This document shows, one piece after another, positions 1-14,471 of a DNA stretch of 59,102 bases. Both the position numbers and the translations under genes were made by a program. Each line of letters begins with the position of its first letter. Positions within the stretch are counted from its first letter, which is position 1. Under the pieces are notes generated by a model, which saw nothing but the letters and a program-made list of their open reading frames with translations, ran no database searches and was not told the origin of the DNA. The stretch comes from Candidatus Omnitrophota bacterium (GTDB lineage: Bacteria > Omnitrophota > Omnitrophia > Omnitrophales > JACQLI01), in contig JACPCP010000021.1 in NCBI GenBank assembly GCA_016179745.1, forward strand, positions 1 to 59,102, written 5' to 3'.

Positions 1-75
1 TCTCGTTCATGGAGCGCCCGAGGAGGCCGAGTTCGTCGTCGGCCGTCGGCGTCGCCCGACCCGTCAGATCGCCGG
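1..75 (-). other. Foreign HAMP-domain coding fragment abutting the giant ORF (probable chimeric junction)
   Basis: A different minus-strand frame from the giant ORF reads ...GDLTGRATPTADDELGLLGRSMNE, a HAMP consensus (GDLT.R......DELG.L..S.N). It is much more GC-rich than the adjacent kinase DNA and does not match the HAMP of the GGDEF gene at about 50160-50310. Confidence 0.6.
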
Positions 76-805
76 TTCCCAATCGCCCGGGAGCTTGCCT
101 TTTATTTCATCGGTATTCGGCATACGGGTGTGTTGATAAAAAAACATTGCGAAGGATTCAGGCTCCCATCCTTCCCAGAGCGGACTGCCGTTGGCCAACT
201 CAAACAAAGTGACCCCGAGCGCATAAAGCTCCGCTTTTAAAATGCCTTCCTCTTCTTGTATTGACAACCACCCCATGGGAGGTTGATAAGCATGGGTCCC
301 TGCAAAAAGATCCGAGCCAAACGTGCGTAATTTTGAAAGAAGATCTTCTTCTCGAATGTGCGATAATCCGAAATCGATCAGCTTTAACCCCTGATCCGGC
401 AGGACCCTCATGTGTGACGGTTTAAGGTCCCGGTGTATGACTCCCAATTGATGCAGGGTTTCGATGATGTCCAAAAGCTCAAGGAATTTCCAAACAACCT
501 TCTTCGCGGGCCGTCCCACTGCCCATTCTTTAAGGTTTTCCCCTCCCAGATAGTCCATTGCCATCCAAAAGAGACTTGGTTTGTCTATAAAGCCGAAAGA
601 TTTAATCGCCGGGGCATGCTCCCAATGATCGATCATCAATTTTCTTAAAGCCTCCGCTTCTGCAGTTAGGCTATTAATACCTTCCAGCATTTTTTTCCCC
701 CCTAAATGGATTATTTTGACGGCGACTATCTCCTGAGTAGCAAGATTGAGCGCTTTAAAGATAACTCCCTGCCCCCCTTGGCCTATTAATTCTTCCAGGC
801 GGTAT
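64..805 (-). other. Ser/Thr protein kinase domain within the giant ORF (C-lobe incomplete)
   Basis: LIGQGGQGVIFKA, VAVK, HRDLKPSH, LIDFGLS, AGTHAYQPP, ELYALGVTL. Ends at LPGDWEPAI before the subdomain XI Arg. Confidence 0.85.
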
Positions 806-3800
806 TGTTCCTGGCCTTCTGCCGCCTTGGCGGGCACTAAGGAACCGATTAATTTTCTCCAGTCTAGTGCTTCGGAATTCCTAACCTCGGAGCGAATGTC
901 TGCCCCCTCAAAGATACTTTCCCCCTTCTTTTTCAAGTCAAGATTCTTCACCGCCTGCGACGGCTCAGAATGACGGAAGGACCGCACCTCGGAACGGAGG
1001 CGGACGGAGGCCGATTTTAAGAGTTCGTCGATCTGGGTTTTTAGTTCTGGGAGGGTCTCGCCGAAGCGGCGAACGGCTTTCTGAAAGACCGCAAATCTTT
1101 TTTCTCCCTTCGGCTGATCCACGAAGACGTGCCGGACAAAGGCGTTGAACCACTCCGCATCGGGCACCGGATCCTCTTTCGTGCCGGCGTGCTGCAAGGG
1201 TATCTCTGCCTTTTTTCGCCGAAGCTCTTCAAGACCGGCTTCCGCAGCCGCCTTCCACACCTGGTAAACCATTCCCATTTCTTCATAATCGTCCCGCAAA
1301 ACCGAAATGAAATTCTCCAAGCCGGCTGTATTCTTTGATTCGATCCTTTGTCCGATAATCCTGGAAACATCCCTAATCCTTCTCAGAAAGCCGCCAACGT
1401 CATGGGTTACCCAGGCGCCCCATTTCCTCTTTTCGATCTTTCCTTCCTCTCCTTCCTCTCGATTCCAAACAAAGATCTTGAACGGGCCAAGACCCGCCAA
1501 GACAGAGACAAGAGCTTCCAGATCTTCGGTCTTCTTCCCAATTTTCTCCGGCAGGGACCCCTGCAACTCTTTGGGCGCAACCGGCCAAACCACCTCTTTC
1601 TCCTTCGGCTGAAGGACGAGGGTGCGGAAGCGGCGGAAGACCGGCCACGGACGGCCGGCTTTCGTGTGCCGTTGGATCGACTTCTTAAGGTCAATTCGAT
1701 TTCCAACGCCGTCGTAATGGTGATAGCGGACTCCTGGCCGATCGGAAGTCTCTGTTCTCTGCTCAGCGGCTAGAAAATCTTCAAAGGGATAATCCCGGCC
1801 GACGGCGTCGTCAATGATTGATTCCTTGATGACTTCGAATTCAAGCCCGAGTTCGTCAAGAAGAGGTTTCACTGTCTTTTCAAAATCGATCCGGTCCACC
1901 AGTTGCAGAAAGATGACGCCGTCTTGACGAAGACGGGGAATGGCTTTCTGAAGCCAGAGACGGACGGAGTGAAGGCCGTCGTAGTGGTCGGAGCGGGAGT
2001 AAATCGTCCGCCCCCACCGAATCCGTGAGGCCTCTGCTGCGGGCTGGCTCTCCCATTCTTTTTCCTCCGGAGTGGGCATCTGATTGGGATTGATGAAGAG
2101 GACGTCGAACTTCGCATCGGGGGGGAGGCTGTCAAAATAAGGACTGATGAAAAAGTCGATTTTCTCCCGTGGGATTTCGTTCCGCATCCGGTTGATTTCA
2201 AGCACCGTGCCGGCATCCCCATTGAGATCCACCGCAACGGCCTTCTCAAACGGGGCGCTGTGCCTCGCAAGCCAGCGGTAAAGCGCCGTCAAAATTCCTC
2301 CGTGGCCCGTGCCGCCGTCGGCAACGACCTTGCCCTTAAAAAAGCCCGGATACTTTTTCTCATAGGCAACCGCTGCCCGGATGATCGACCAAAAGCCCTT
2401 GGTGGGAGCCGGGGTGGAGGGACCGGTGGTCAATTCAAAGGAGAAATCGTTCCCCAGAACAGGCATCAGGCCCGCCGGCTCCCTGTAATCTGAAACTTGC
2501 AAACCTTCGGAATTTCGGTTGTCACGGCTCGCTACCCTCATCGAGTCAAAGAGCCAACCGGCCTCTCCTTTCCGATCGGGATTCGTCAAAAGCCGATAAA
2601 GAGCGTCCAACACGTCTCGATAATTCTCTTCGAGGCTCCAGAGCGGTTCCGTGATGAGCCGACGGCCGATCTCTTCGATATGCCCCCGGTCATGAGACAA
2701 AGAGGACGGAGATCCGTTGAGAAGCCAAAGGGGCTCTTCGGTTTCTTTACGACCGCCGGCTTGAGACTGCCGTCCAACGACAGCTTCAGACTGACCTCCC
2801 CAATTAAACTTTTCGACTCGAAGCTCCTGATGAGCCCGCCCGAGATCATCCCGGGCCCACCTGAGGAGATCCGGATCGGTCCCGCTTCCCTTCTCTGTCC
2901 GCACCTCAGCCCGGGCGGCGGGAAGGATAAACTTCTCCGGATCGACAAATTCACGCCAGCGTCTGGCTTCGGCGTAGGCCTGGAAATCGAAATCCTCGAA
3001 ACGGCCGCCGTGTCGGAGCAGCGCAAAGGCAATCCGTGTCGAATCCTCCAGGGCTGTCTTACCTACTTCAAAACGAAACGGCTGCTTCCGGATCCATTCC
3101 TCAAGCTGGAGGGCGTCCAAATCCAGCCAAAATCCCTCAATCAAGGCCCACCCCAATTTGAAAAGCCGAAGGGGATCTTCAACGGAAGGAAGCACCAAGT
3201 CTCGAATCTCCCCCACTTTCTCAGAAACCCGCTTGGGCTCGATCCGACGCACTGACTCCGGATGGGCCTTGAAATAACCGGCGATCTCAATCGTTTTCTT
3301 TGCCCGATTCGCCCGGACCTCCTGAGCCAGCTTGAGATTATTTTTCCCTTGAAGGTTTAGCGTTTCAGAATCAAGCAGCCGACCGAGCTTGGCAAGTTCT
3401 TCCCCTAATAACCGGACCTCACCGGGCTCCAGCGAATCGACTTTCGCCTCCTCCAGGGTCTTTCTTACGGCATGAAGTGACTCTTCAAGGATCCGGACTC
3501 CGGAATGACGGCGGGAGCCTTGATGGTTCGTCCGGAACTCCAGGCTTTTTTCAATATCGTAGAGGGAATTCACGGCAAGCCGGAGCCTTTTGATCCAGCC
3601 CGCCTCCCTCTTGAGGGAAAGAAGTTCGGCGGAGGCCAAAAGAAAATAAAGGCGTCCCATCTGGGCCGCTTCCTCGTCCGGATGAAGCCGAAAGTCGTCA
3701 ACGACTGAATAAGCAATTTCCTTTGCCTTTCGAAGCTCCTCAACCTCGTTAAAAACAACCTCTTTGGGACTCGAAATCTGCGCCCTCGCCTTGCTCAAAT

Positions 3801-6800
3801 GAAGATGGACACGGGCCGCCTGGTCCTCTCTTCCGTTCAGTCCCTGACGGGGATCGTCAAGAATCTTTTCTGCTTCCTCAAACAAGGGCACGGCGTCACG
3901 AAATCTTTTTTGTCCCGCCGTTTCTACGGCCAGGCGGACCAAAATCATCGCCTTGTCCCCCCAAAGACCACGATCGCCGGGAGCCAGATTCAGCGCAGCA
4001 TCCACCCCGTCAAGACTTCTTTGATAGCGGGTGCCTCGCTCGCCCTTTTCCTGATCCTGACGTGCGGCGATGGCATCGTAAATGAGGGGGGTCTTCTTCA
4101 AAATAAACAGAAAAAGAGCGGTGAGTTTTTGATTCTGATTCCCTTCCAGGGCCATGAATACGGCAAGCCGTGTCAACTTTTCCCGGCCGATAAACTTTTC
4201 ATCCGGACCCGAGAAGGGCTCTTCCAGCGGAATCTCCAGCCCCTTGATTTTCGGGCCGAGCCGGGGGTCTTCGAGCGCCTCGTAGATAAAGGCCCGGAAG
4301 AGGGCCTCGATCAACTTTAGATCGCTCTCGTCATATTTTCCCGGGCCTCGGTCGATCAGTTTCGTCCAGAGCTCTCGAACCACAAAGTGGCGGAACGTCT
4401 TTTCGAGTCCCGCCTCAAGCGGAACCTTCGGCTTATAGCCAAAAAGTCGACGGGCTCTCTCGATCACCGGCTGCCGCTGTTTCGGATCGGTGGAATCAAT
4501 CTGGGACACGTCCACAACCGGGACTTCCACGCCGAGATATTTTCGTCCAAGCTCCTCAACCAGCCCGGCCAGTTCCCGGATCGTGAAGTTGCCGGGATTT
4601 CCGATGTTCACGACCCGGCCGTCGATCGGCGTCGACCGGGTGATCTCCCCGGTCTCAAGAAGTCCGACGATCCCTTCGAGCGTGTCTGCCACGAAACCAA
4701 AGCTCCGGTTTTGGCCCCCGCCGCCGTAAAGCTCGATCACACGGCCCTTGCCCGTGCCATAAGTTGATTTCCAAAATTGATCGAGCGCCGCCTGAATGAA
4801 ATTGGTAATGACCCGCCCGTCATCCAGCCGCATTCCGGGGCCATAGGTGTTGAAGATCCGGACAATCCGGGCATCGAGATAATGCCCCTCGGCCTTCTCC
4901 TTCTCGAAATAAAGCCGGATCAAGGTCTCGGCGCCACGCTTTGATTCGTCGTATTGGGAGCGCTTTCCAATCGGATTCACCCGGCCGGGGTAGTTTTCAT
5001 CCTGCGCTTCAACGTCCGGGTCGCCGTAAACTTCGGACGTGGAGGAAAACAGGAACCGGGCCTTCTTTTCACGGGCGAGGTCGAGGGCAATCTTCGTGGC
5101 CTGGAGGCCGGCAAGGAGTGTCTCAAGCGGCATCCCATAATAGAAGGGCGGGCTTGCGAGAGAGGCCAAATGAATGATTTCGTCAAGCTCGCCGTCGATG
5201 GTGTAGGGCTGGCTGACGTCTACATTTTTAAAAAAGAAATTCGGGTTTTCCTGAAGGTCCTTCAGATTGCTTTTGACGCCGCTTGCAAGGTTGTCGAGCC
5301 CAATCACCTGATGCCCTTCCTTCACAAGCCTGCGTGCAAGATTGGAACCGAGGAAGCCCGCCACGCCCGTCACAAGGATCCGTTTCTTCCCCGGCGGCAC
5401 GGGCGGGGGGAGGATGATTTCGGGTTCACGTTTTTCTCCAGACGGAATCTGGAATTCCTCAAACGTGAGCGTCTTAAACACCCCGTCCTCCTGAGCCGCC
5501 TCCGATGCCAAAGAATGAATGACAACCTGGCGGCTTTCAATCTGCTCTTCGGGTGACCCCTTGCTGTCATCAAATTTCTGCACAAGCAAATCGAGCGCCA
5601 CCGCCCGAAGGCTCTCCAGATCCGGGGTTTTGTCCGCCTTCCCTGTTTTCAGGATCCGAACGTCAACCTTTCTGCCGTCCTTGTCAGGAAACCGGAAATA
5701 GGCGCTGGCCCACGCCATCGCCACCCGGGCGCCCTCAATCCACGGCGCCTGGTCGTGGAGCGGCCCGTAACCCTCGAGCTCCTCCGGGACCACCAGCACC
5801 ACCGGAAGATTTCCCGCCCTCGCCTTTTCAAGGACCTTTAAGAAATCAAACGCCATCTCATGAAAATCTTCCCACGCTTGATCGAGATGCCCGCCAAAAT
5901 CAAATCCCCCGGCCGGCGCCCTCGGCGTCACATAAATCAGCCCCTTCGTTTTTCCCTCAGCATCAACGATCGAGAATCTGTTTGGCGCCGGGCCCCCTTC
6001 TTTGTTCCGCACCTCAGCCCTAGCCATCCCTCTTTTTCTCAACTCCGCCACCCGGGCGATTGCTTCCTGTGTTTCCTCAGGAAGGAGCTCAAGGCCGCTG
6101 AGTTCGCCCGGTTTGGTCCGATTCGGGGAAAGATCAATGGCATAGTAATCCTGGCCCTCTGAATCCTCTCCGGTGCTGCCGAGCCAGTAAAGAGGAAGAC
6201 CGAGATCTCTGGTCACGGATCGAATCATCGCAAACGACTCAAGCTGTCTCGTGTCTATCAATAGCCAGTAAAAACGAACAGATGGCCCCTCAGAAGGCCG
6301 TTCTCCTATAAATTGTTTCAGCGTCTCTGACACAAGCCGCTTCCCAAGCCCCTTTCCACGGAACCTCCGGCTGAGACCATAAGCACCCGTAACACCGGAC
6401 CACGCCTGGATCCGCCTTAGAGGGTTTCCCGTCAAATCCAGAGAGGTCAAATCGTCGGAAGCAAGCGCATGGAATCCGACAAGGCTCTTTGCCCTCTTCA
6501 GCGTCCAAAGCTTCACCACTTTGTTGCTCTTGAGCCAGAGGTCAACAGCCGTCAAAGCTTCTGTCTCAAACTCGCCAAGTTGCTCCGAATTGAGATAGCG
6601 CTCAATGAGCCGGAGAATGCTCTTAAACCTTTCTCTTGGCACTTCTTCGACCTTAAAATCTTCTGACCCGGCCCTCACTTCTACGCTGCGCATTTCAGAG
6701 CGTCCTTCCAGCCGGGCGCCGAAAACAACCGGGTGCCGGGCTTCCTTCGGGTCAAACCAGTTTTCCGGAAGCTGGCTTTTGCGGTCGTGAAGCTGACTTT

Positions 6801-9800
6801 GCAAAGCAGGAAGTTCCCGGCCCATCGTTTCAAGAATGTCAAAGGCGACGGACCGGACCCTCAGATCCGGATCGTCCAGATAATTCCATAAAATTCGAAG
6901 GGTCTGAATTTTTGCCCTCGTCGATGTTTTCCAGAGGTCGTCCGGGGTCTCAACGGCCGCCCTGAGGCGCCTCAGGAGAGCGGCCTCTCCCCATCTCAAT
7001 CGATGTTTCCTGAGAGCGGAAAAGAGCAAGGAAAAGAAGAGTGGGTCACTGAGGGAAAAAATTGGATTCCACTGAAGCAGCCAGACAGGCAAAGAAGTCA
7101 TCAGGGAACCGGCCGCCGCCAAAGCCCACGGAAACCATGGGTTATTTGAGGCCTGCGCCGTCCTCGCTTCCACCGCATTCCCGAACCGCCAGAGATATTT
7201 AGAAATCTTTTCAGGGTCGTAACGTCTCAGTGGATCAAGAAGGAACGGCTGATTCAAATCAAGCTTCGACCTTGTCTCTGAACGAACTCCCTCGATTCCC
7301 CGCACCTCGGAGCGGATGCCCTGGGTCGTGGGCGCATGGACCTCGGGGAAAAGATCGTTTCTCCAGAATGAATCCTTCCAATAGGGGGGATCGTATTCCT
7401 TGACCCAACCCGCAATCAGGTTGGCATAGCTGTGCAGTTCGGCGGAAATCAAATCGCCAAGTTGGGCGTGAACAGCCATCCGCTCAAGCAGTTTCACCCC
7501 CAAGGCAGCCAAATGCAGACGGACACTCTCGGACTCCAGGGCCGTCACGCTTTGACTCAAACGGGACGGCAGCAAGCCCATTGAATCCCGAGACGGTTCG
7601 TGCGCTGAAAGGAATCGGACTTTTTCCGCTTCGGGCCATTTCTCCCCTGACCTCGGAGTAAAGTATCGGCCCAGAAGCTCGATCAAGCTTGTTAGATCAC
7701 TTAAGGTCGTTTTACCTTTATGAATTCCGCCCGCTTGGCTTAAGGAGATGAGCGCAAAAAGCGCAAGCCCCAGAATGAGGAGGGGACGTGCTTCGTCAGC
7801 CGATGCGCTCCCCTCCTTGAGTTTTAGATAGAGCTCCTCCATTTCCTGTTCGATTTGTGATCTCAACAGCACAAGATGGGCTTGTTCGAGGCGGTCTAAC
7901 TTTTCCGAATGGGGAGGCGCCAAGAAATCCCGGAATTTCAGCAGAGCGTAAATCCCCCGCCGAAGAATCCCTGAACCGAGATCCAGACCCCCCCCTTTCC
8001 CGGACAGGACCCATTCCGCCCACGGTTCGAATAACTTTGCTTGGAGGCCGAGAAACTCTTTCATTAATTCTACCGACCGAGGGGACAGATACGCCTCCGG
8101 AACGCCGCTGAGGATCAAAACGTCGGTGATGCTCCCTGGGCCCCCCTGCGCCGAAGCGGCCAGTTTTCTCATCCGACTTAATGAATCGGTGAGCCGGGCC
8201 TCAAAGACATCTTCGTAGGCCGGGCCGATCCGTCTGAAACCGCCCACCTCCGGCATCTTCTCGACATAACGCCTGTCGTCACCCAATACCCTCAACACCG
8301 ACTCCGGCGGCACTCCTTCGACGATGAGGATCGCCCCGGGCTTCATTCGAAGCACCACCTCGGAAAGGTCTGTCAAAATCTCAGCCGCCCTGACAACGGT
8401 TTTACCCGGCTCCCCCTTCATCGAAGGATAGAGATAAACAACGTCATATTCCCGAAGCGAAACCTTCTCATCCAGGTAATTCTTATGGAGGATATGGATC
8501 CGCTCCGGATCAACCGCTCCTTGCTCGCTTAACGCCCGGGTCGCCTCTTGAGAAAGCTTCCATAAATACCGGTCCTGCTCAAACCCGAACAATTCGACGC
8601 CCAAACCTTGAGTTTCCGCATTCCACAGATGGACGACATAACCTGTTCCTGATCCAAGCTCCGCAATCTTTGAACCTTTCTTAAGATGGCCGGATTTTCC
8701 CAAGCTCCTCAAATGGTCAAGGGCGTGGGCCTCCGATGTCCGGGTGTAGAGATAGAGACCCCGGCTCGTATCCCAAAGATCGGGCCGCTCCTCCTGGATT
8801 CTATGGGAAAGCCCTTGGTGAAGTGAGCGGATGGTCTCTCTTGGCTGAGCCAAGACCCCGGAGCGGGGAGGGGGAAGGGGAAAATGCAAGCGGAGGGCGT
8901 AGCGACCCTCGGGGGGCGCACGGTCTCTCACCACGGAGATCCAGACTTCAGAACCGGGGAAGGAGTGAAGGCGCTTCATTAATTGAATCAGAGGCGCCAA
9001 TTCGAGCGCCAAAGAGGACGCAAGATCATCAAGGGCATGATTCCAATTCTTCTGATTTTCTGCCGTCAATCCGCCTGTTTCTTCTTTCGTTTTCCGCAAC
9101 ACTTGAAGCACGGGGGTCTGTGACTCCTTGAGACGGACCCCTCCAAAATCAAGAATCGTCCTTTTCCCTGAGTCATCCCGAACTTCAGCTTCCAGCGGGA
9201 TTTCTCCCTGCTGCCAGATTTCCTTCATCACTCCCCTCATCCGTTCCCGGTCCTGGAGCGGAATGTTTCCCAATGCCTCGTCAATTCCCTTAAAATCCCC
9301 CGCCCTTTCCTCTTTATCCAGGCTTTTCATCAATTTCTGCTGTTGCCACCCCAAGAAAACAAAAAGAAGAAAGCCGCCGAGCGTCCCGGCCACCCAAACG
9401 ACCGGAAGATTTCCATAACCGGGAAACATCCAGAGAGAAAGTTCCCCGGACCAGAGAAAATAAGCGGAACCCAAAAGGCCGAGGGCCAATAGGCCCAGGG
9501 AGAGGATTTGATAACGAATCGTTGTCTTGAGATCGTTGACCTCTTCGTCTACCTCTTTCGCCGGCATCCCGTCGATCGTCTCCTCCGCCCCCGCCTTCCC
9601 CCGCACCTCGGCCCTCACTACGTCATCCTGAGCACCCGCAGGGTGCGAAGGATCTCGGGTTTCTGATCCTTCACTCGGCCCGAACGGGCCTCGCTCAGGA
9701 TGACGGATTTCCCGGCGCACCTCGGCCCGGGGAGCTGAATCTGTGGGCTCTTTCGATTGTTTGTCATTCCCTTCCTGAGACTTGGAATGTTTCCGGTGGC

Positions 9801-12800
9801 TTCTGTGAATTTTTACCAGAACCATAAGCCCGATGCCGACCGGAATGAGATATACCAAAGCGACTGCCATCAAGATCTGTCCACTCAAAAAATAAACTAG
9901 AGCAGCGACCAGGCTGATTACCCATCCCATGACAACCCCAATCCACGCTAGATTCTTTGTAACGATCCAATCGAGTTTTCTTACCTTCTTCTCCCAATGA
10001 ACCAGTCGCTTCTGAAATGCGGAAGGATTGCTTGGTTGGCTCTTTTTTTCGTCGAAGTCTCCTCGAATCGCTCTGAGTTTCTCTTTGAGCTCGGTAAGAC
10101 GAACGGTATCCTTTACCATCTTCGGGAACTCCCTAATTAGCCTCAGCGGCCGCCATTCTTGATCTAAGCTTTCTTCTATCTCCTTGTACCCTTCTCCGAC
10201 GGTTATCAACTGGTCCCACAGATCCCGGTCCGATCTATCTTGCGTCCGCACCTCGGCGCGGGAGGGGGGAGTGCGAAGCTCGGGGCGGCCGCCTTCTTCT
10301 TCGAATTCGATTCTCGATTTTTCTGATCGTATGCCCGGTTTCTCTGAAGTCTCCTTCCTCTCCCTCGTCCCTTCTTCCATTTTCTTCCGTATCTCTTTAA
10401 GTCCTTGCAGAGATTCCTCCATCTTCTCCTCACGATCCCAAATACCTTTAAGAAACTCATAAAACCGCTTGGCCGCCTTTCGGAGAGCAGGATCTTCTGC
10501 TTCATCCATAGCAATCCGGTTCAATAGATCAAGAATTTCGGTTCTGTCACCCCCATAGCCGATTGCGATCCACCAGAGTGCCTTTGTTACTGCCTCACGC
10601 ACCGGGGGCGGATTCCGCTCACCCTTTTCTTTGAGAATCTCGATGAGGAGAGGCACCGCCCCCATTGCCTGCTCGCCCATTGATTTGAAGATTAAAATGA
10701 TTTCTCTTCGGACCCCCGGATCTGTCTCCTGCCTCAATGCATCCATCAAGGAAGGAACAAAGGGGATGACAAGGGGGTTGTCCAAACTCTGCACCCTGTC
10801 CGCCGAGAGAATGTGAATCGCCATCTTTTGAAGCTCCGGCGTGCCCTCTTTGGCCAGTGTTAGAAGCTCAAGCGCAACCGATTCAATTCCCGGCCACGAC
10901 AGATCCTCGAGGATCTGGGATAGGAACTCCTGGACTGAGCCGGCGGCCTTGCCACCCTTCTTGAATTGCACCATCGCTTCTTGAGCCAGAGTGATTCTCT
11001 CAGAAATATCGAGCCACGCATTCAATTCAATCCAATCCCAGTCATCCAGAAAATTCCGTGCGGCATCGGCCACCGATGGGTCTTTGTCTCCAGCGAGCCG
11101 GATGACGGATCGGAAAAGGTCTACTTTGTCAAAACCAGCCGGCCAAGATGAACCGAAGAGAGGTTTGAGGTTGTCTGAAATCAACACAAGTGCTGCGACC
11201 TTCACCTGCGGATCCGGTTCCTTCAGTAAAGCCGCCAGCTCAACAATCAAAATGACCTTCCCCTCATCGGCCAAATTGAAAAGAAGATTCTTAATCTCGT
11301 AAGAAACGTCGCCCCGGAGCCTCGGGTCCTTCAAAAGGGAGACGTAAAGAGGGATCCAATCACCAATCCCCCTAGGCACAAAACCGATACGGGAGGTTAG
11401 AGCTGCAAGCGCAGCGAGTCTCACTTTTGGAAATTCGTCCGGGTTCTTCAAGGTTTCGGCCAATCTGGTTTTGAATTCGGAGTCCCAGGCCTTTTGAACG
11501 TCGGTGGGCTCAGTGAATGCGAAAAGCCTGGCCAACGTCATGATGGCCGCTTCCCGAACGTCGGGGGACCTGTGGTTCAAACGTTTCATCAAATGAGGGA
11601 TGGTTTCCTTGGCTTCGGAGCCGATTTCACTGATGTAGAGCATGGCTTTCTGTAAGTTCTTTATTTCCTCAGGACTTTTTTCCTTTGGATCACTCCCCTC
11701 TCCTTTGATGAGCCTGATCAGCTCTTCCTTCGACTCCCGGATTGCGTGTCTTCGATTCGGATCGATGGTGTGATATTTTTCAATCTTCTGAAAGGTAATC
11801 TTCACTCTCCACTCGTTGTATTCATTCTGCGCGCCTGAAACGGCCGATTTGAGGGAAGGCTTCGACAGGTGCCAGACCGCTGTCCATTCAAGTAATTCCC
11901 AGGCTAACGAAATCAGAAGCATCCCGACTATCAAGGACACCATCCGAAACTCCTTTTTCTGGTGATACCTCTTCGTTTCCTCAAGAAGGATTTGTGAGAA
12001 GGCAAAGAGAAAATGCCGAACCTCCTCTGTTTCTACGATTTCCCCCTTCTCATCCTTTAAAGGCGGAACCTTCTCGTCAAAGTAAGCTCGGTCTCCGCTT
12101 GCCCAGTCCGAAGCGGTGTCGCGCATCCCGTCAGGCAATTTTCTTGCAAGGAGCTTCGCTTGGCGAGGCGCTTCCTCTTTAAGGAAAGTTTGCCGCTCCA
12201 CTTCAGATAAATTCATGATGATTCTCGAAATCTCTCTAAAGAGCGCGGTGAGCTGTCCGCGGGCCAGCGTCGGGCGGTCCCCCTTATGCAGTTCTTTATC
12301 CTTGAGCACGTTCTCGAGGATCATCATGAGGTCGATCTTCTCCGGTCGTTCCGTCTCCCCCCGCACCTCGGCGCGGGAGAAGGATTCGGCGCGACGGAAA
12401 AGTTGTGTTTTAAAACGCTCCTTTTCCTGGAGGGAAACCATGCTTGAAATGACCAGCTTGATATCGAGGGTGCTTGCGAGGCGGTCACGATACGGGATGT
12501 CATCGAGGACTTCAGCGAGCTTTGGGAGCACGGGCACGACGGTGATACCGGCCCGCTCGAGGCCTTCCCTCAGACCCGTCTCGTGAAAGCCGCCCACCAC
12601 GGCGACGGTGGCTTTGAGTCTCGAGTGTGACAATTCCCTGAGAATTTTGCCGGCGAAGATTCGATCTCTTCTATCTGCCAGGGCGTAGAAACGAAGGGCG
12701 GGGCGGGCGGCCTCTTGGAGCGATCGAATCTCCCTTTTCGACAAACCAAGCGTTGCAAAAAATTGCTCCCCAGCGCCCGTCTTCCTAATCTGCTCCCAAT

Positions 12801-13674
12801 CCTTCGACTGAAGCTCCAGACGGAGGAGCGATTTGAGGCGCTCAAGGGACTGAATTTTATCGATCAGGTCCTTTTCCTCTTTTGACTCGGCCAGACGGCC
12901 ATAAATTTTCTCCGTGAGCGCCTCCAGCTCCTCCCCGAACAACCCTTTGTGAATCCCTTCAGTTAACTGAACGGAGATCTCGCTTTTACTTTCCGAAAGG
13001 GCCCTCGAGAAAAGATAAAGATTGGGAAAATCCACGAGTGAAACCCTCGCCTGCTTCGCAGATTCGAGGAGGAGCGGAAAATATTCCCCGGACCGAACCG
13101 CCCTCGCCTGAAACCGCTCATTCAGCTCGAGAAAGCGCTGAAGTTTGGGGGATAAAATCTTTTCTCTTGATCCTGCCAGCGAACGCTCCGCCTGCTCCAC
13201 GATGGGACGAATTCTTTCGCCCGCCTTCACCGTCCGAATGAAGGCTTCCCGGTTCCGGAGGTAGAACTCCTTTTTTTCCAAACCGTAGAATCGGGGGAGT
13301 TTTTCAGCCGTGATGTAAAAGTATTCGGCGCCGGTGAGCTTCCCTTCCCTCACCATTTCCCAGGCGGCCTGGGCCAGCGCATTTTTCTCCGGAAAGGTGC
13401 GGAAGAGGCGGCCGTCGATCGGGTCGCTGGCGCCTTCGAGACCGATGCTTGAAACCCCCTTCTTTTGGAAAAAACGGAGGAGGCGTGCAATTTGTCTTTG
13501 AGTTTCGCTTGAGGCGTGGGCGTTTAGGAGAAGATAAACGGTTTTTGTTCCAGGCGGTTTTTCAAGCGGCGGGGCGCCCGGAAAGGCGGCGGCGGTCTCC
13601 GAGGTAAAACAAATTAGGGTAACGAGTGCCGCCAGTTTCAAAAAGGGCCGCTTCTTTTGGAAATGATGTTCCAT
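64..13674 (-). CDS. Giant multidomain secreted/membrane protein (4536 aa), probably 3'-truncated
   Basis: Uninterrupted ORF with an N-terminal signal-like sequence (KKRPFLKLAALVTLICFTSETAAA), several hydrophobic TM segments, HEAT-like repeats, enzyme motifs and a sigma70-like promoter upstream. Confidence 0.92.
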   Translation of the reverse strand: MEHHFQKKRPFLKLAALVTLICFTSETAAAFPGAPPLEKPPGTKTVYLLLNAHASSETQRQIARLLRFFQKKGVSSIGLEGASDPIDGRLFRTFPEKNALAQAAWEMVREGKLTGAEYFYITAEKLPRFYGLEKKEFYLRNREAFIRTVKAGERIRPIVEQAERSLAGSREKILSPKLQRFLELNERFQARAVRSGEYFPLLLESAKQARVSLVDFPNLYLFSRALSESKSEISVQLTEGIHKGLFGEELEALTEKIYGRLAESKEEKDLIDKIQSLERLKSLLRLELQSKDWEQIRKTGAGEQFFATLGLSKREIRSLQEAARPALRFYALADRRDRIFAGKILRELSHSRLKATVAVVGGFHETGLREGLERAGITVVPVLPKLAEVLDDIPYRDRLASTLDIKLVISSMVSLQEKERFKTQLFRRAESFSRAEVRGETERPEKIDLMMILENVLKDKELHKGDRPTLARGQLTALFREISRIIMNLSEVERQTFLKEEAPRQAKLLARKLPDGMRDTASDWASGDRAYFDEKVPPLKDEKGEIVETEEVRHFLFAFSQILLEETKRYHQKKEFRMVSLIVGMLLISLAWELLEWTAVWHLSKPSLKSAVSGAQNEYNEWRVKITFQKIEKYHTIDPNRRHAIRESKEELIRLIKGEGSDPKEKSPEEIKNLQKAMLYISEIGSEAKETIPHLMKRLNHRSPDVREAAIMTLARLFAFTEPTDVQKAWDSEFKTRLAETLKNPDEFPKVRLAALAALTSRIGFVPRGIGDWIPLYVSLLKDPRLRGDVSYEIKNLLFNLADEGKVILIVELAALLKEPDPQVKVAALVLISDNLKPLFGSSWPAGFDKVDLFRSVIRLAGDKDPSVADAARNFLDDWDWIELNAWLDISERITLAQEAMVQFKKGGKAAGSVQEFLSQILEDLSWPGIESVALELLTLAKEGTPELQKMAIHILSADRVQSLDNPLVIPFVPSLMDALRQETDPGVRREIILIFKSMGEQAMGAVPLLIEILKEKGERNPPPVREAVTKALWWIAIGYGGDRTEILDLLNRIAMDEAEDPALRKAAKRFYEFLKGIWDREEKMEESLQGLKEIRKKMEEGTRERKETSEKPGIRSEKSRIEFEEEGGRPELRTPPSRAEVRTQDRSDRDLWDQLITVGEGYKEIEESLDQEWRPLRLIREFPKMVKDTVRLTELKEKLRAIRGDFDEKKSQPSNPSAFQKRLVHWEKKVRKLDWIVTKNLAWIGVVMGWVISLVAALVYFLSGQILMAVALVYLIPVGIGLMVLVKIHRSHRKHSKSQEGNDKQSKEPTDSAPRAEVRREIRHPERGPFGPSEGSETRDPSHPAGAQDDVVRAEVRGKAGAEETIDGMPAKEVDEEVNDLKTTIRYQILSLGLLALGLLGSAYFLWSGELSLWMFPGYGNLPVVWVAGTLGGFLLFVFLGWQQQKLMKSLDKEERAGDFKGIDEALGNIPLQDRERMRGVMKEIWQQGEIPLEAEVRDDSGKRTILDFGGVRLKESQTPVLQVLRKTKEETGGLTAENQKNWNHALDDLASSLALELAPLIQLMKRLHSFPGSEVWISVVRDRAPPEGRYALRLHFPLPPPRSGVLAQPRETIRSLHQGLSHRIQEERPDLWDTSRGLYLYTRTSEAHALDHLRSLGKSGHLKKGSKIAELGSGTGYVVHLWNAETQGLGVELFGFEQDRYLWKLSQEATRALSEQGAVDPERIHILHKNYLDEKVSLREYDVVYLYPSMKGEPGKTVVRAAEILTDLSEVVLRMKPGAILIVEGVPPESVLRVLGDDRRYVEKMPEVGGFRRIGPAYEDVFEARLTDSLSRMRKLAASAQGGPGSITDVLILSGVPEAYLSPRSVELMKEFLGLQAKLFEPWAEWVLSGKGGGLDLGSGILRRGIYALLKFRDFLAPPHSEKLDRLEQAHLVLLRSQIEQEMEELYLKLKEGSASADEARPLLILGLALFALISLSQAGGIHKGKTTLSDLTSLIELLGRYFTPRSGEKWPEAEKVRFLSAHEPSRDSMGLLPSRLSQSVTALESESVRLHLAALGVKLLERMAVHAQLGDLISAELHSYANLIAGWVKEYDPPYWKDSFWRNDLFPEVHAPTTQGIRSEVRGIEGVRSETRSKLDLNQPFLLDPLRRYDPEKISKYLWRFGNAVEARTAQASNNPWFPWALAAAGSLMTSLPVWLLQWNPIFSLSDPLFFSLLFSALRKHRLRWGEAALLRRLRAAVETPDDLWKTSTRAKIQTLRILWNYLDDPDLRVRSVAFDILETMGRELPALQSQLHDRKSQLPENWFDPKEARHPVVFGARLEGRSEMRSVEVRAGSEDFKVEEVPRERFKSILRLIERYLNSEQLGEFETEALTAVDLWLKSNKVVKLWTLKRAKSLVGFHALASDDLTSLDLTGNPLRRIQAWSGVTGAYGLSRRFRGKGLGKRLVSETLKQFIGERPSEGPSVRFYWLLIDTRQLESFAMIRSVTRDLGLPLYWLGSTGEDSEGQDYYAIDLSPNRTKPGELSGLELLPEETQEAIARVAELRKRGMARAEVRNKEGGPAPNRFSIVDAEGKTKGLIYVTPRAPAGGFDFGGHLDQAWEDFHEMAFDFLKVLEKARAGNLPVVLVVPEELEGYGPLHDQAPWIEGARVAMAWASAYFRFPDKDGRKVDVRILKTGKADKTPDLESLRAVALDLLVQKFDDSKGSPEEQIESRQVVIHSLASEAAQEDGVFKTLTFEEFQIPSGEKREPEIILPPPVPPGKKRILVTGVAGFLGSNLARRLVKEGHQVIGLDNLASGVKSNLKDLQENPNFFFKNVDVSQPYTIDGELDEIIHLASLASPPFYYGMPLETLLAGLQATKIALDLAREKKARFLFSSTSEVYGDPDVEAQDENYPGRVNPIGKRSQYDESKRGAETLIRLYFEKEKAEGHYLDARIVRIFNTYGPGMRLDDGRVITNFIQAALDQFWKSTYGTGKGRVIELYGGGGQNRSFGFVADTLEGIVGLLETGEITRSTPIDGRVVNIGNPGNFTIRELAGLVEELGRKYLGVEVPVVDVSQIDSTDPKQRQPVIERARRLFGYKPKVPLEAGLEKTFRHFVVRELWTKLIDRGPGKYDESDLKLIEALFRAFIYEALEDPRLGPKIKGLEIPLEEPFSGPDEKFIGREKLTRLAVFMALEGNQNQKLTALFLFILKKTPLIYDAIAARQDQEKGERGTRYQRSLDGVDAALNLAPGDRGLWGDKAMILVRLAVETAGQKRFRDAVPLFEEAEKILDDPRQGLNGREDQAARVHLHLSKARAQISSPKEVVFNEVEELRKAKEIAYSVVDDFRLHPDEEAAQMGRLYFLLASAELLSLKREAGWIKRLRLAVNSLYDIEKSLEFRTNHQGSRRHSGVRILEESLHAVRKTLEEAKVDSLEPGEVRLLGEELAKLGRLLDSETLNLQGKNNLKLAQEVRANRAKKTIEIAGYFKAHPESVRRIEPKRVSEKVGEIRDLVLPSVEDPLRLFKLGWALIEGFWLDLDALQLEEWIRKQPFRFEVGKTALEDSTRIAFALLRHGGRFEDFDFQAYAEARRWREFVDPEKFILPAARAEVRTEKGSGTDPDLLRWARDDLGRAHQELRVEKFNWGGQSEAVVGRQSQAGGRKETEEPLWLLNGSPSSLSHDRGHIEEIGRRLITEPLWSLEENYRDVLDALYRLLTNPDRKGEAGWLFDSMRVASRDNRNSEGLQVSDYREPAGLMPVLGNDFSFELTTGPSTPAPTKGFWSIIRAAVAYEKKYPGFFKGKVVADGGTGHGGILTALYRWLARHSAPFEKAVAVDLNGDAGTVLEINRMRNEIPREKIDFFISPYFDSLPPDAKFDVLFINPNQMPTPEEKEWESQPAAEASRIRWGRTIYSRSDHYDGLHSVRLWLQKAIPRLRQDGVIFLQLVDRIDFEKTVKPLLDELGLEFEVIKESIIDDAVGRDYPFEDFLAAEQRTETSDRPGVRYHHYDGVGNRIDLKKSIQRHTKAGRPWPVFRRFRTLVLQPKEKEVVWPVAPKELQGSLPEKIGKKTEDLEALVSVLAGLGPFKIFVWNREEGEEGKIEKRKWGAWVTHDVGGFLRRIRDVSRIIGQRIESKNTAGLENFISVLRDDYEEMGMVYQVWKAAAEAGLEELRRKKAEIPLQHAGTKEDPVPDAEWFNAFVRHVFVDQPKGEKRFAVFQKAVRRFGETLPELKTQIDELLKSASVRLRSEVRSFRHSEPSQAVKNLDLKKKGESIFEGADIRSEVRNSEALDWRKLIGSLVPAKAAEGQEQYRLEELIGQGGQGVIFKALNLATQEIVAVKIIHLGGKKMLEGINSLTAEAEALRKLMIDHWEHAPAIKSFGFIDKPSLFWMAMDYLGGENLKEWAVGRPAKKVVWKFLELLDIIETLHQLGVIHRDLKPSHMRVLPDQGLKLIDFGLSHIREEDLLSKLRTFGSDLFAGTHAYQPPMGWLSIQEEEGILKAELYALGVTLFELANGSPLWEGWEPESFAMFFYQHTRMPNTDEIKGKLPGDWEPAI
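941..975 (-). repeat. Half copy of the GTCAT(C/T)CTGAGC palindromic element, in frame in the giant ORF
   Basis: Minus strand CGTCATTCTGAGCCGTCGCAGGCGGTGAAGAATCT matches the left arm of the element at 14466-14582 (CGTCATTCTGAGC...GAAGAATCT). Translates as RHSEPSQAVKNL. Confidence 0.7.
1640..2420 (-). other. Class I SAM-dependent methyltransferase domain (HemK/MTS-like) within the giant ORF; boundaries approximate
   Basis: Motif I VVADGGTGHGG, AVAVDLN, and an NPP-like motif FDVLFINPNQMP. Confidence 0.75.
4381..5388 (-). other. NAD-dependent epimerase/dehydratase (UDP-glucuronate decarboxylase-like) domain within the giant ORF
   Basis: ILVTGVAGFLG, HLASLASP, STSEVYG, YDESK (YxxxK), RIFNTYGPGM..DDGRVITNFI, NIGNP, DP.QR.P.I. 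Confidence 0.9.
6110..6640 (-). other. GNAT acetyltransferase-like domain within the giant ORF; boundaries approximate
   Basis: Acetyl-CoA binding motif A: AYGLSRRFRGKGLGKRLV. Confidence 0.65.
8250..8740 (-). other. Class I SAM-dependent methyltransferase domain within the giant ORF; boundaries approximate
   Basis: KIAELGSGTG, LFGFEQD, HKNYLD, YDVVYLYP, MKPGAILI. Confidence 0.75.
9621..9705. repeat. Palindromic (REP/RPE-like) element inserted in frame in the giant ORF
   Basis: Perfect 13-bp terminal inverted repeat CGTCATCCTGAGC/GCTCAGGATGACG, inner inverted repeat GAAGGATC/GATCCTTC, and two small hairpins (GCACCC-GCA-GGGTGC; GGCCCG-AA-CGGGCC). Translates as RHPERGPFGPSEGSETRDPSHPAGAQDD. 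Confidence 0.85.
10450..11680 (-). other. HEAT/PBS-lyase-like repeat region within the giant ORF; boundaries approximate
   Basis: Repeated motifs such as IPHLMKRLNHRSPDVREAA, LLKEPDPQVKVAAL, DKDPSVADAA, ETDPGVRREI, AVPLLIEIL. Confidence 0.75.
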
Positions 13675-13727
13675 GAGGGTATGAGAGCCGCCCCTTAACT
13701 TCTTTAGTTTGCAGGGGTTAAGCGAAA

Positions 13728-13756
13728 AGTCTACCCGACAAAAGGTGACTTGTCAA
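13728..13756 (-). promoter_or_regulatory. Sigma70-like promoter of the giant gene
   Basis: TTGACA (13756-13751), 17 nt spacer, TAGACT (13733-13728), about 55 nt upstream of the ATG. Confidence 0.65.
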
Positions 13757-13841
13757 AAACTTAAAAAAAGCTCGGACCCAATCCAACCTCATGCAGGTTC
13801 AAGGGATATGAAAAGTAAAACGGGGGGAGAAAAGATTTTTT

Positions 13842-14471
13842 CTAGCGGGAATGTGAGGGGCGTTCGTTCAAAAGCCTTTTAAGGGTTTCCCCCGCTTTTT
13901 TGACGGCCTCGGCCCGGTGCGAAACACGGTGTTTTAATTCCGCCGAAACCTCGCCAAACGTTTTTCCGTAGGGGCCGTAAATAAAAATTGGGTCGTAGCC
14001 GAAGCCGTTTGAGCCTTTCATTTCCCGGGCAATCGCACCCCGGACCTCGCCCTCGGCCACGCCGGCCAATTCCTTCGGGTTCGCCACCGCCACCGCTGAA
14101 ATGAACGAGGCATGCCGGCAGTTGTCCGGCAATTTTTCCATCAGACGAAGGACCTTGAGACAATTTTTGACGTCGTCTTTTTCAGGGCCTGCGAAACGCG
14201 CCGAGTAAACGCCGGGGTTCCCCTCGAGGGCCTCCACCACGAGGCCGGAATCCTCGGCAAGCGTCAGAAGCCCTGTGGCTTTCGCCGTCTCCACGGCCTT
14301 TTTGACGGCATTTTCCCGGAAGGTTTTTCCGTCTTCAATTACTTCTGAAATAGGCGGGATGTCTTTCAGAGAGGAGAATTCAAATGGCAGATCCGAGAGA
14401 AGGCTCTTTAGTTCTTCCAGTTTCTTTTTATTCGTCGTGGCAATGAGAAGTTTCACGGCTGGCCCCGTCAT
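13842..14471 (-). CDS. rdgB: Non-canonical purine NTP pyrophosphatase (RdgB/HAM1)
   Basis: LLIATTNKKK, EDGKTFRENA, AEDSGL, GVYSARF, GFGYDPIF, K..VSHR. Sits downstream of rph as usual. Start could be GTG at 14459. Confidence 0.95.
   Translation of the reverse strand: MTGPAVKLLIATTNKKKLEELKSLLSDLPFEFSSLKDIPPISEVIEDGKTFRENAVKKAVETAKATGLLTLAEDSGLVVEALEGNPGVYSARFAGPEKDDVKNCLKVLRLMEKLPDNCRHASFISAVAVANPKELAGVAEGEVRGAIAREMKGSNGFGYDPIFIYGPYGKTFGEVSAELKHRVSHRAEAVKKAGETLKRLLNERPSHSR

Follow-up and report, generated by a model that had tools for sequence, protein, structure and literature searches.

Rickettsia palindromic elements (RPEs) were reportedly found in 2000, by Ogata and co-workers, to insert in frame into protein genes, adding a peptide and leaving the host protein intact. 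Palindrome-associated elements derived from IS200/IS605 (PATEs) insert 3′ of a short specific target, and REPs act as mRNA stabilizers in E. coli. For the giant proteins of Omnitrophota known as ‘Archaeovorins’ post-translational cleavage has been proposed, with the cleavage points stated to be unknown (West-Roberts et al. 2023, bioRxiv 10.1101/2023.11.21.568195). Neither that study nor a 2026 survey (10.64898/2026.06.07.730766) mentions the delimiter motif, the linkers, or the palindromes described below.

Delimiters and palindromes in the giant gene

The window analyzed here, a 59,102-nucleotide stretch of DNA from a Candidatus Omnitrophota bacterium, includes a giant ORF of 4,536 codons (64..13674, minus strand, as are its delimiters and spacers given below) encoding a signal peptide and a conserved head (amino acids 1-433), HEAT repeats, membrane segments, an SDR epimerase, a methyltransferase, and a C-terminal Ser/Thr kinase. 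Comparison of a model of the head (pLDDT 78.5) with PDB structures revealed no protease and no other significant fold, and Pfam and PDB sequence searches returned neither a protease nor any other match. Sequence comparisons show the pentapeptide R-[AS]-E-V-R to be the module delimiter of a giant multi-module gene family. The ORF has nine copies, at the coordinates found in the preliminary description of this DNA. The first delimiter, RAEVR (CGCGCCGAGGTGCGG), is located at 12361-12375, and single delimiters, all RAEVR, are found at 10246-10260, 6007-6021, and 2899-2913.

Other copies are doubled. Twin 1 consists of an upstream copy at 9715-9729 (CGG GCC GAG GTG CGC, CGGGCCGAGGTGCGC) and a downstream copy at 9601-9615 (AGG GCC GAG GTG CGG, AGGGCCGAGGTGCGG), separated by a spacer of 33 codons or 99 nt (9616-9714, REIRHPERGPFGPSEGSETRDPSHPAGAQDDVV) that folds with p = 0.003 against length-matched ORF segments. 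This spacer includes a full palindrome, GTCATYCTGAG...CTCAGRATGAC, at 9622-9704 (9621-9705 if one extra C-G pair is counted), which is separated from its two delimiters by 10 nt and 6 nt and, to judge by its sequence, could form a four-way junction; the twin 1 region folds as single-stranded DNA with z = -4.1. Twin 2 comprises RSEVR copies at 982-996 (upstream) and 880-894 (downstream, CGCTCCGAGGTTAGG) and an 87-nt spacer, which includes at 941-975 a half copy of the same palindrome family made of one outer arm, a side hairpin, and one inner arm. The remainder of this spacer (895-940), which encodes DLKKKGESIFEGADI and resembles a hairpin repeat found after the same palindrome in the syntenic G003:C8 gene (KKGESLLF), looks decayed, and the whole twin 2 spacer folds no better than shuffles. 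These two regions confirm the earlier observation of in-frame palindromes, one full and one half, in short spacers between doubled delimiters. A third twin (7270-7314) had been listed with them; its 15-nt spacer, coding for GIEGV and free of repeats, does follow an RSEVR (7300-7314), but the second copy (7270-7284) is a variant, RSETR, with T replacing V. A fourth pair, the tandem RSEMR-SVEVR at 6673-6702, is a degenerate short twin that was absent from that list.

The palindrome family occurs in 28 of 61 related genomes, mostly in intergenic positions and also without any delimiter. An intergenic full copy lies in the window between the Ham1 and RNase PH genes (14467-14581), with no delimiter near, and a delimiter core at most 31 nt upstream of the family was found in two cases in the 61 genomes, both in the giant gene. 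That the twin delimiters are the target-site duplication of the palindrome was rejected because they do not abut it. No close orthologue showing an empty site for the insertions at 9622-9704 and 941-975 was found among the relatives. In-frame palindromic repeats are also present in giant ORFs outside any twin, namely at C15:59837, at about amino acid 315 of C14 (within a head domain), and at 12093-12169 of G003:C8, and the latter gene carries an in-frame terminator-like hairpin with a T-run. The stems of the repeats are preserved through compensatory changes and the loops flip between copies. The likeness of these hairpins to integron attC sites, drawn in the preliminary description, did not survive: the palindromes are generic, mostly intergenic, and not adjacent to the twins, and about 85% of the junctions consist of one delimiter without a hairpin.

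Nucleotide constancy of the delimiter

The 15-nt coding consensus of the delimiter is CGC KCC GAG GTG CGG. As had been noticed before, seven of the nine delimiters of the giant gene use the identical GAGGTGCGG (P = 5e-8; genome codon usage gives 0.055 for this 9-mer), and the first Arg codon varies among CGC, CGG, AGG, and CGT. Of the 98 delimiters in the genome, 52 use GAGGTGCGG, where codon usage predicts about 5, and 54 have CGC as their first Arg codon, where 15-18% would be expected. The preference differs by position, CGC at R1 and CGG at R5, and three other genera of the family have the same preference; the exact 15-mer was found in 20 of 61 relatives, compared to 0-1 times for the controls. 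The count of CCGAGGTGCGG is 50 versus 1.5 expected, and 49 of these copies fall within long ORFs, on the sense strand and in frame. Normal codon bias, the trivial reason for the recurrence of GAG-GTG-CGG, does not explain these counts, which show the 15-nt sequence of the delimiter to be kept constant at synonymous sites across genera. Synonymous deviations cluster by copy: a permutation test (p = 1e-4) gave 28 perfect delimiters where 15 were expected, and 11 with at least four deviations where 2 were expected.

The in-frame and sense-strand occurrence of the delimiter, together with the switching of its first Arg between the AGG and CGN families, indicates that it is first of all a peptide signal. 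The 15-mer is in addition a quasi-palindrome (CGCKCC GA GGTGCG) and, by its synonymous-site constancy and the spacer, insertion, and breakpoint data given below, it behaves as a DNA joint as well.

Spacers, mini-elements, and homology breakpoints

Gaps between delimiters in the window genome fall into two classes, mini-spacers of up to 50 amino acids and modules of at least 78; the class of 51-77 amino acids is empty genome-wide (0 vs 9.6 expected from random placement, p = 2e-4). Giant ORFs sampled from three other genera are split likewise, with 27 pairs at most 64 amino acids apart and none at 65-95, and overall the twin-bounded mini-spacers span 4-64 amino acids. Close pairs barely exceed random placement genome-wide (26 vs 20 expected, p = 0.08), and the non-random aspects of the pairs are the empty class and the contents of the spacers. 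In the window genome, 7 of 20 spacers outdo 95% of ORF segments of matched length in folding, and the other 13 have no notable hairpin; for the giant ORFs sampled from the relatives the figure is likewise 7 of 20. Mini-spacers are thereby enriched in hairpin repeats, which belong to several small palindromic families that are also seen intergenically or at gene 3′ ends.

One mini-element of G002 is found between delimiter cores at the identical base in 14 of 14 copies. In the upstream delimiter codons one and two vary and the fifth is fixed (CAC or CGC); in the downstream delimiter the first two are fixed, as AGG followed by GCC (13 copies) or GCT (one copy), and the fifth varies. Twin 1 of the window matches this pattern (...GTG CGC ... 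AGG GCC GAG...), and AGG as first codon is commoner in downstream twin copies (6/26 vs 8/146, p = 0.009). In family B of G000 all eight intragenic copies have phase 0, and each begins immediately past a delimiter or past its GAG codon. Since mini-elements of different junctions are 90-100% identical amid unrelated neighboring modules, they have spread recently. A spacer repeat family with three of its seven copies within twin spacers flanks, in inverted orientation, the single Y1_Tnp (HUH) gene (C12:108189-108527); the repeat begins with GTAG, and in another genus, too, the Y1_Tnp gene is flanked by this repeat core. No recombinase gene adjoins the giant gene, and no Y1 transposase gene was found adjoining the G002 fixed-point family.

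It is unlikely, in our view, that the delimiter linkers are just the only harmless sites for in-frame junk, with twins arising by chance or slippage, codons set by translational preference, and no role of the delimiter DNA in recombination or insertion. The twin count near random expectation would agree with this, as would a window palindrome family mostly outside genes and without delimiters, twin copies that do not abut the palindrome, and giant-ORF repeats that lie away from delimiters. Left unexplained are the 14 of 14 and 8 of 8 copies at one fixed delimiter base, the chimeric codon pattern of upstream and downstream copies, the clustering of synonymous deviations in the same copies, and contigs C8 and C22, which have a terminal 99-mer in common and diverge 1 nt past a delimiter; nor is CGC at R1 versus CGG at R5 expected from a single translational preference. 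Tolerance of insertions by the linkers, the alternative that the preliminary description had kept, contributes to the explanation but leaves the nucleotide-level facts unaccounted for.

The head of the window gene is common to the syntenic G003:C8 gene up to the first delimiter (12361-12375), where the homology (60% identity) stops, and one interior module, that of the methyltransferase, is in common, beginning exactly at the delimiter at 2899-2913. Between G000:C14 and G003:C4/C19, the flanks of which are 74-87% identical at the DNA level, head homology stops 6-13 amino acids ahead of the first delimiter and tail homology starts 7 amino acids past the penultimate delimiter of C14, inside its terminal twin (9 amino acids past the last delimiter in G003 terms), and there is no interior module in common. 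The breaks of both orthologous pairs fall at delimiters, as had been anticipated, and these alignments show that the sequence similarity of related genes begins and breaks off at the delimiter. Whole-module turnover is, as far as the aligned loci tell, bounded by the delimiters that also bound mini-spacers. Intragenic DNA repeats terminate at delimiter cores too, which is partly automatic because alignments of repeats beside a conserved 15-mer tend to end there.

Syntenic loci that keep head and tail and have the interior wholly or almost wholly replaced could suggest a translated integron, where the delimiter is an att-like site at which a dedicated recombinase moves segments in frame, from 60-nt hairpin mini-cassettes to enzyme modules, with hairpins acting as attC. 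The quasi-palindromic 15-mer is in line with it, and so are core-bounded composite units of 177-182 nt present in three copies in G002:C2, hairpins of G003 made of inverted delimiter, loop, and delimiter, two copies of which have the loop in opposite orientations, and the clustered synonymous deviations, expected if fresh junctions begin as consensus. We nevertheless judge it no more probable than simple tolerance: most junctions have no hairpin, no recombinase gene adjoins the giant gene, large modules duplicated recently at the DNA level were seen neither in the window genome nor in the sampled loci, the delimiter is never outside ORFs or antisense save for one of the 50 core copies, and selection at the peptide level is evident. 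The recombination or insertion site proposed in the preliminary description is partly supported, by the codon constancy, the breakpoints, and the mini-elements at a fixed base, and the attC analogy is dropped.

A signal at the RNA level, with the Shine-Dalgarno (SD)-like GAGGUG core and the hairpins as ribosome pause sites or barriers to 3′-5′ decay and selection keeping codons and stems, seems quite improbable. GAGGTG matches the SD consensus (the general one; the 16S 3′ end of the host, with the anti-SD, is absent from the bin), and compensatory changes in stems, loops that flip between copies, and the stabilization of E. coli mRNA by REPs would fit; however, SD motifs before crude start codons are weakly enriched in the window genome (GGAGG 5.8% vs 3.2% background), and neither the homology breakpoints nor the fixed insertion point is explained. 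Very improbable is a fusion of neighboring genes, one delimiter per gene, that left twin spacers as old intergenic DNA with REP- or terminator-like hairpins: the same repeat families do occur between genes and at the 3′ ends of ordinary genes, and the G003:C8 in-frame hairpin with its T-run is terminator-like, but mini-elements are 90-100% identical across junctions beside unrelated modules and all their copies share one phase and one base.

The best explanation as a whole, to which we give an even chance of being correct, is that the delimiter is a conserved joint, duplicated locally, and that twin spacers host in-frame palindromes. The core could be duplicated by 12-nt slippage, generating R-x-E-x-R-x-E-x-R, or by the copying of core-flanked mini-elements between delimiters via short-homology recombination or template switching. 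REP- or MITE-like palindromes lying between a pair of intact delimiters could then persist in frame, where they would be tolerated because each adjoining module retains its own delimiter. The benefit would be greatest if the delimiter were a processing site, as the junk peptide would be excised. In the window, the complete copy (9622-9704) and the decayed half copy (941-975) may each have landed in a twin spacer.

Relation to described systems

RPEs share with this locus palindromic repeats in frame inside protein-coding genes; they differ in sequence family and lineage, which are unrelated, and are not known to be tied to a recurring peptide or DNA motif at their flanks or to doubled delimiters. 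Like the G002 fixed-point family, PATEs are non-coding and have two subterminal hairpins, one orientation, a position fixed by a specific sequence, and a target-like right end. In contrast, no cognate TnpA turned up next to the mini-element family, the flank is a 7-13-nt duplicated core instead of an unduplicated target of 4-5 nt, and all mini-element copies are intragenic and in frame. As in integron arrays (attI/attC, IntI), a fixed platform, here the head, precedes unrelated units that form a variable string and are bounded by a short recurrent site, and some sites have structured imperfect palindromes of variable sequence. Here, however, a single reading frame joins the units, the site that recurs is a translated 15-mer, the hairpin is missing at most junctions, no IntI-type gene adjoins the array, and an R'/R'' core consensus is absent.

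REP/REPIN elements and the associated RAYT (Y1, HUH) transposases (Nunvar et al. 2010, PMC2817692; Bertels and Rainey 2011, PMC3116915, PMC3337134) resemble the present repeats in being multi-copy short imperfect palindromes, in the single Y1_Tnp gene flanked by inverted GTAG repeat copies, and in stems conserved via compensatory changes. While REPs are extragenic by definition, copies are here read through in frame inside giant genes, with a preference for the space between doubled delimiters; each genome has few copies (5-14), and the window palindrome family has no demonstrated tie to the transposase. The Archaeovorins (10.1101/2023.11.21.568195) resemble the protein described here and its host in their HEAT repeats, membrane segments, many enzyme domains, and small genome.

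The delimiter motif of the giant gene

The window, contig C20 of an assembly of 25 contigs (1.5 Mb, 55% G+C, 79% complete), includes a 4,536-codon uninterrupted ORF on the minus strand (13674 to 64), with the contig edge at the 3' end of the gene. Pfam matches along this ORF comprise HEAT repeats, an SDR epimerase/dehydratase, a weak methyltransferase match and a C-terminal protein kinase, and its upstream neighbors are Ham1, RNase PH, radical SAM, QueC, racemase and aminotransferase genes. Nine R[AS]EVR pentapeptides, named delimiters here together with their 15-nt coding DNA, are found in the gene at the positions where a preliminary description had placed them. The DNA identity reported for seven copies was also recovered: the 9-mer GAGGTGCGG is present in seven of the nine delimiters while the codon of the first Arg (R1) varies, being CGC, CGG, AGG or CGT. 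As the probability of this 9-mer is 0.055 under the codon usage of the genome, seven copies in nine have P = 5e-8.

The long ORFs of the whole genome include 98 R[AS]EVR copies, nearly all within about 12 giant ORFs of up to 14,650 codons. The 9-mer GAGGTGCGG is found in 52 of the 98 when about 5 would be expected, and normal codon bias, which might have accounted for the shared DNA, is insufficient. R1 is coded by CGC in 54 of the 98 delimiters (15-18% expected) and the fifth Arg (R5) by CGG in 65; since R1 favors CGC but R5 favors CGG, one translational preference cannot account for both choices. The sequence CCGAGGTGCGG occurs 50 times as compared to 1.5 expected, and because 49 of these copies are in frame on the sense strand of long ORFs, the delimiter signal is a translated one. 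That R1 is coded in some copies by AGG and in others by CGN codons points to selection on the peptide. The bases of the delimiter DNA are constrained as well as the peptide.

An exact match to the 15-mer CGCKCCGAGGTGCGG was found in 20 of 61 relatives, as compared to 0-1 times for reversed-pattern controls, and the GAGGTGCG preference extends to three other genera of the same family, each with its own favorite first two codons. Synonymous deviations cluster per copy: 28 copies are perfect (15 expected) and 11 have at least four deviations (2 expected; permutation p = 1e-4), a distribution that fits copies of differing age starting as the consensus, or two classes of copies. Inspection by eye of the delimiter list showed no clear pattern of compensatory changes within the quasi-palindromic 15-mer among the rare codon variants. 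A function of the delimiter as an internal ribosome-binding site with start codon was set aside; as judged by eye, ATG directly follows only 5 of ~100 copies, and a start-codon pattern at +1 to +3 is not apparent.

The region of the giant genes before the first delimiter is a conserved N-terminal domain, or head, which in the window encompasses nucleotides 12373-13584. Ten paralogous heads share invariant H23, Q29, E50-G51 and G331-G332-x-H334 (GGFH). Searches gave only a sub-threshold adenosine-deaminase match in Pfam and matches near E = 0.7 among PDB sequences, and a Foldseek comparison of an AlphaFold model of the head (pLDDT 78.5, pTM 0.74) to the PDB returned no match with E < 0.06 and no protease-like fold. 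Co-evolution with the head in the form of ORF-specific delimiter variants was not established (chi-square permutation p = 0.09).

Twins and the repeats they enclose

Some delimiters are found as twins, close pairs around a mini-spacer. On the minus strand of the giant gene, twin 1 (9715-9729 and 9601-9615) encloses a 99-nt spacer with an 83-nt palindrome (9622-9704) and twin 2 (982-996 and 880-894) an 87-nt spacer with a half copy of the same palindrome (941-975), which confirms the earlier placement of both palindromic elements in twin-bounded spacers. The twin 1 region folds as single-stranded DNA with z = -4.1, better than all of 200 shuffles; the twin 2 spacer taken whole is not a hairpin. 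Twin 3 (7270-7314, minus) encodes RSEVR-GIEGV-RSETR, and a fourth pair, a degenerate tandem (6673-6702, minus), encodes RSEMR-SVEVR. An Rfam search of window positions 1-14000 matched no family.

Twins enclose a distinct class of mini-spacers rich in palindromic repeats. The 153 gaps between successive R[ASG]ExR motifs in the genome include 26 of up to 50 aa, none of 51-77 aa, and a remainder of at least 78 aa, about 85% of the junctions being a lone 15-nt delimiter. With respect to random placement within each ORF the short gaps are mildly enriched (26 vs 20, p = 0.08) and the empty class is significant (0 vs 9.6, p = 2e-4). The same split is found in giant ORFs of three related genomes, G001, G002 and G003, which are single species representatives sampled in part (27 pairs of up to 64 aa, none of 65-95 aa). 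Seven of 20 spacers fold better than 95% of length-matched segments of the same ORFs, and 7 of 20 fold notably in the sampled relatives too, about one being expected in each case. A sliding-window MFE scan was too noisy as a repeat finder in this GC-rich DNA. Tandem delimiters with a 12-nt period, in which the middle Arg is common to both (RSEARAEVR, RSEARSEVR), are present in all four genomes and suggest slippage of the delimiter core. These overlapping tandems of 12-nt period (RSEARAEVR, RSEPRAEVR, RSEARSEVR, RAENRSEVR) amount to about seven cases in the four genomes, by a rough estimate far above chance; they are located at aa 1591 of contig C13 and aa 1761 of C25 of the window's genome and also at loci of the related genomes G002 and G003.

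Certain repeat families have a constant position, exact to the base, in the delimiter core. In G002 a 48-nt two-hairpin element is present in 14 copies. Every copy is located in a giant ORF, all share one reading frame, and each has a delimiter core on either side, its position being identical to the base. The upstream delimiter varies in its first two codons and always has CAC or CGC as the fifth, while the downstream delimiter always starts AGG GCC (GCT in one copy) and varies in the fifth codon, a chimeric pattern as would be expected from an insertion into the shared GAGGTG core or from copying between such cores. The element pairs with the upstream core (z = -4.2) and includes a degenerate inverted delimiter copy. 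The loops of both hairpins are found in both orientations and the stems have compensatory changes; what is conserved is the nucleic acid structure and not the peptide. Three copies of core-bounded composite units of 177-182 nt are located in contig C2 of G002. The window's genome has a family, named B (TCTGCTTCGCC...GCTTCGCAGA), with two intergenic copies that have no delimiter and eight intragenic copies, all in phase 0, of which six begin immediately downstream of the delimiter and two downstream of its GAG codon. AGG as the R1 codon is enriched in downstream twin copies (6/26 vs 8/146, p = 0.009); among seven exact AGGGCCGAGGTGCGG copies, five form the downstream half of a strict twin and a sixth comes after a degenerate upstream copy. 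The codons of twin 1 in the window match this pattern (...GTG CGC ... AGG GCC GAG GTG...). Two hairpins in which an inverted delimiter and a delimiter enclose a 13-nt loop were found in G003 (locus L044 on contig C19, 1126-1167, and L045 on C35, 3157-3198) and only there, none being present in the window's genome; their loops are exact reverse complements of each other and their arms keep the reading RTSAR ... RAEVR.

The palindrome of twins 1 and 2 belongs to the GTCATYCTGAG family, which has invariant arms (GTCATYCTGAG ... CGAAGRATCT ... AGATYCTTCG ... CTCAGRATGAC) and two variable side hairpins whose stems show compensatory changes. Full copies are found in 28 of the 61 related genomes, up to 51 per genome, and many of these genomes do not have the exact 15-mer. 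The window's genome has five, three intergenic and two inside giant ORFs, of which only one lies between delimiters, and a copy in contig C8 of G003 is in frame without flanking delimiters. Being widespread and often found without the delimiter, the family is generic and delimiter-independent. A delimiter core at most 31 nt upstream of it was found in only two cases in the 61 genomes, both in the window's giant gene, where the placement of the palindrome is still not random. One of the intergenic copies (115 nt, 14467-14581) lies between Ham1 (13842-14471) and RNase PH (14572-15318) and overlaps the Ham1 start codon region.

The possibility that twin 1 is a target-site duplication of the palindrome was rejected, as the 13-nt direct repeat GGGCCGAGGTGCG stands 10 nt and 6 nt off the palindrome ends; other copies of the family have no flank in common. 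Twin 1 minus 84 nt reads RAEVR-REIVV-RAEVR, similar to twin 3, and the palindrome 9622-9704 probably landed in a pre-existing short twin. No orthologue with an empty site for the insertions of the window was found: aa 1100-1600 had no counterpart among 60 relative genomes, a collection of 5.8 billion proteins gave no match, and metagenome contigs gave one weak match (31% identity over 85 aa). In locus L043 (G003, contig C8) a terminator-like hairpin with a T-run (GGGGAGAGTCTCCTTTTCG; 12170-12230) directly follows the in-frame palindrome and is read in frame as KKGESLLF; a decayed counterpart, KKKGESIFEG, follows the half copy in the window (895-940).

The genome encodes a Y1 transposase that is associated with a repeat family of its own, and members of that family occupy twin spacers. 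The only Y1_Tnp gene (C12:108189-108527; PF01797 at 45.5 bits, HUH motif NHFHLLV) has on both sides, at 108019 and 108761, inverted copies of the repeat GTA[GC]CATTTCC[AG]AAAGTGCCGGG (the GTAGCATTTCC / GTAGCATTTCCAAAAGTGCCGGGTT family), of which there are seven copies in the genome. Three more GTAGCATTTCCAAAAGTGCCGGGTT-family copies are inside twin spacers of the giant ORFs of contigs C15 and C8 of this genome, and the same repeat core flanks the Y1_Tnp gene of G002. No link to a Y1 transposase was found for the GTCATYCTGAG family or the G002 mini-element. A family of perfect 26-nt palindromes, GTAG...CTAC, is found in a twin spacer of C13, in the head domain of C14, and in the twin before the methyltransferase module of G003 contig C8; the C14 copy (17530-17555, aa ~336) is read as GSGGLSLRY within the conserved head and not in a linker. 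Other repeats of the window are a REPIN-like doublet of the Y1-flanking repeat (GTACCACTTCCAAAAGTTCCGGGTT and an inverted partner, 23740-23830), beside it a 57-nt perfect direct repeat (23547-23603 and 23654-23710), and, near the contig end, direct repeats of about 95-109 nt with 96-100% identity (58337-58805).

Module turnover at delimiters

As judged from sequence alignments, homology between related giant genes begins and ends at delimiters. The window has a syntenic counterpart in contig C8 of G003, where the upstream 2.4 kb is 76% identical to 16927-19235 of the window. The heads of the two giant genes are 60% identical over aa 1-443, the alignment ending at the first delimiter, and beyond this they have in common one methyltransferase module, aligned exactly from RAEVR (aa 3588 in the window gene, aa 952 in G003), and nothing further. 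This module is preceded by a single delimiter in the window and by a palindrome-containing twin in G003. A second pair consists of C14:16525-34215 and loci L052 and L044 of G003 (contigs C4 and C19), with flanking genes 74-87% identical in DNA. The heads are 62% identical up to 6-13 aa before the first delimiter; the tails are 55% identical from 7 aa after the penultimate delimiter of C14, inside its terminal twin, which in G003 corresponds to 9 aa past the last delimiter; no interior module is in common. The expectation that breakpoints would map to the motif was borne out in both pairs, where homology starts or stops at or within 13 aa of delimiters.

In giant ORFs, four DNA repeats next to a delimiter have their ends 0-4 nt from its boundary. 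Part of this agreement follows automatically from the conservation of the delimiter. C8:64787-64885 and C22:1-99 of the window's genome start with an identical 99-mer (an assembler k-mer overlap) that encodes ...NKLNERGFLTLEDLSRAEVR and diverge 1 nt past the delimiter. On one branch of this fork the frame extends for 14,650 codons and on the other it ends after about 370; the branches may represent separate loci or alleles of a single one.

Possible origin of the twins and comparison with known systems

Twins might originate by duplication of the delimiter core, either through slippage or through copying of core-flanked segments. Between two intact delimiters repeats could then persist as in a trap, and if the delimiter is a processing site, as we propose, the trapped peptide would be disposable. 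The preliminary description had suggested that the motif doubles as a DNA insertion or recombination site. The conserved codons, the mini-elements at a fixed base and the breakpoints at delimiters speak for such a role of the motif, while the palindromes on which the suggestion was built belong to a generic family that does not depend on the delimiter. It is unlikely, in our estimation, that the 15-nt delimiter is a true att-like joint to which core-bounded segments, from 60-nt hairpin mini-cassettes to whole modules, move or are copied in frame at any delimiter. In that case the giant Omnitrophota genes would be arrays of translated cassettes set between a constant head and tail, and among these cassettes the palindrome twins would be the youngest and smallest.

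The giant genes for multi-enzyme proteins in Omnitrophota have only recently become a puzzle, and according to the published work the cleavage points of their products are unknown (West-Roberts et al. 2023, bioRxiv 10.1101/2023.11.21.568195), a question that becomes testable with a searchable 15-mer that is both a peptide delimiter at module boundaries and a DNA landmark for base-fixed repeats and near-complete interior exchange between orthologues. If the putative processing site is cut, spacer peptides such as HPERGPFGPSEGSETR should be missing from the proteome. If instead it serves as a joint for recombination, the junctions of presence/absence alleles should fall within the 15-mer (CCGAGGTGCG). 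The behavior of REPs may also be extended, in that repeats that are extragenic by definition can live in reading frames where a host-encoded signal renders the site harmless.

The proposed analogy to integron attC sites did not hold. Among the genes upstream of the giant gene there is no adjacent IntI-type tyrosine recombinase gene; every integron cassette has a structured attC (R''/L''-L'/R' boxes), whereas here most junctions are single 15-nt delimiters and only 7 of 20 twin spacers fold notably; and each integron cassette is an ORF of its own, with a start and a stop, in contrast to one unbroken 4,536-codon frame. In a MITE with target-site duplication the direct repeats should abut the inverted repeats, which is not so at twin 1. 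Rickettsia palindromic elements are similar in that a palindromic repeat is in frame in a coding gene and the frame is left open, a functional resemblance only, as the sequence families are unrelated. The likeness to REP/REPIN-RAYT systems includes short imperfect palindromes repeated in the genome (five full GTCATYCTGAG copies, seven of the GTAGCATTTCC family, and the GTAG...CTAC 26-mers). A Y1 (HUH) gene between inverted repeats, the known REP-RAYT arrangement (PMC2817692, PMC3116915), is seen for the GTAGCATTTCCAAAAGTGCCGGGTT family in both the window's genome and G002, but such a link was found neither for the GTCATYCTGAG family nor for the G002 mini-element. REPs are extragenic, however, whereas 9622-9704, 941-975, C15:59837 and the C15 and C8 spacer copies are translated in frame. 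Finally, the giant genes resemble those of polyproteins in having a recurrent short motif (98 R[AS]EVR) at module boundaries, where blocks of homology start and end.
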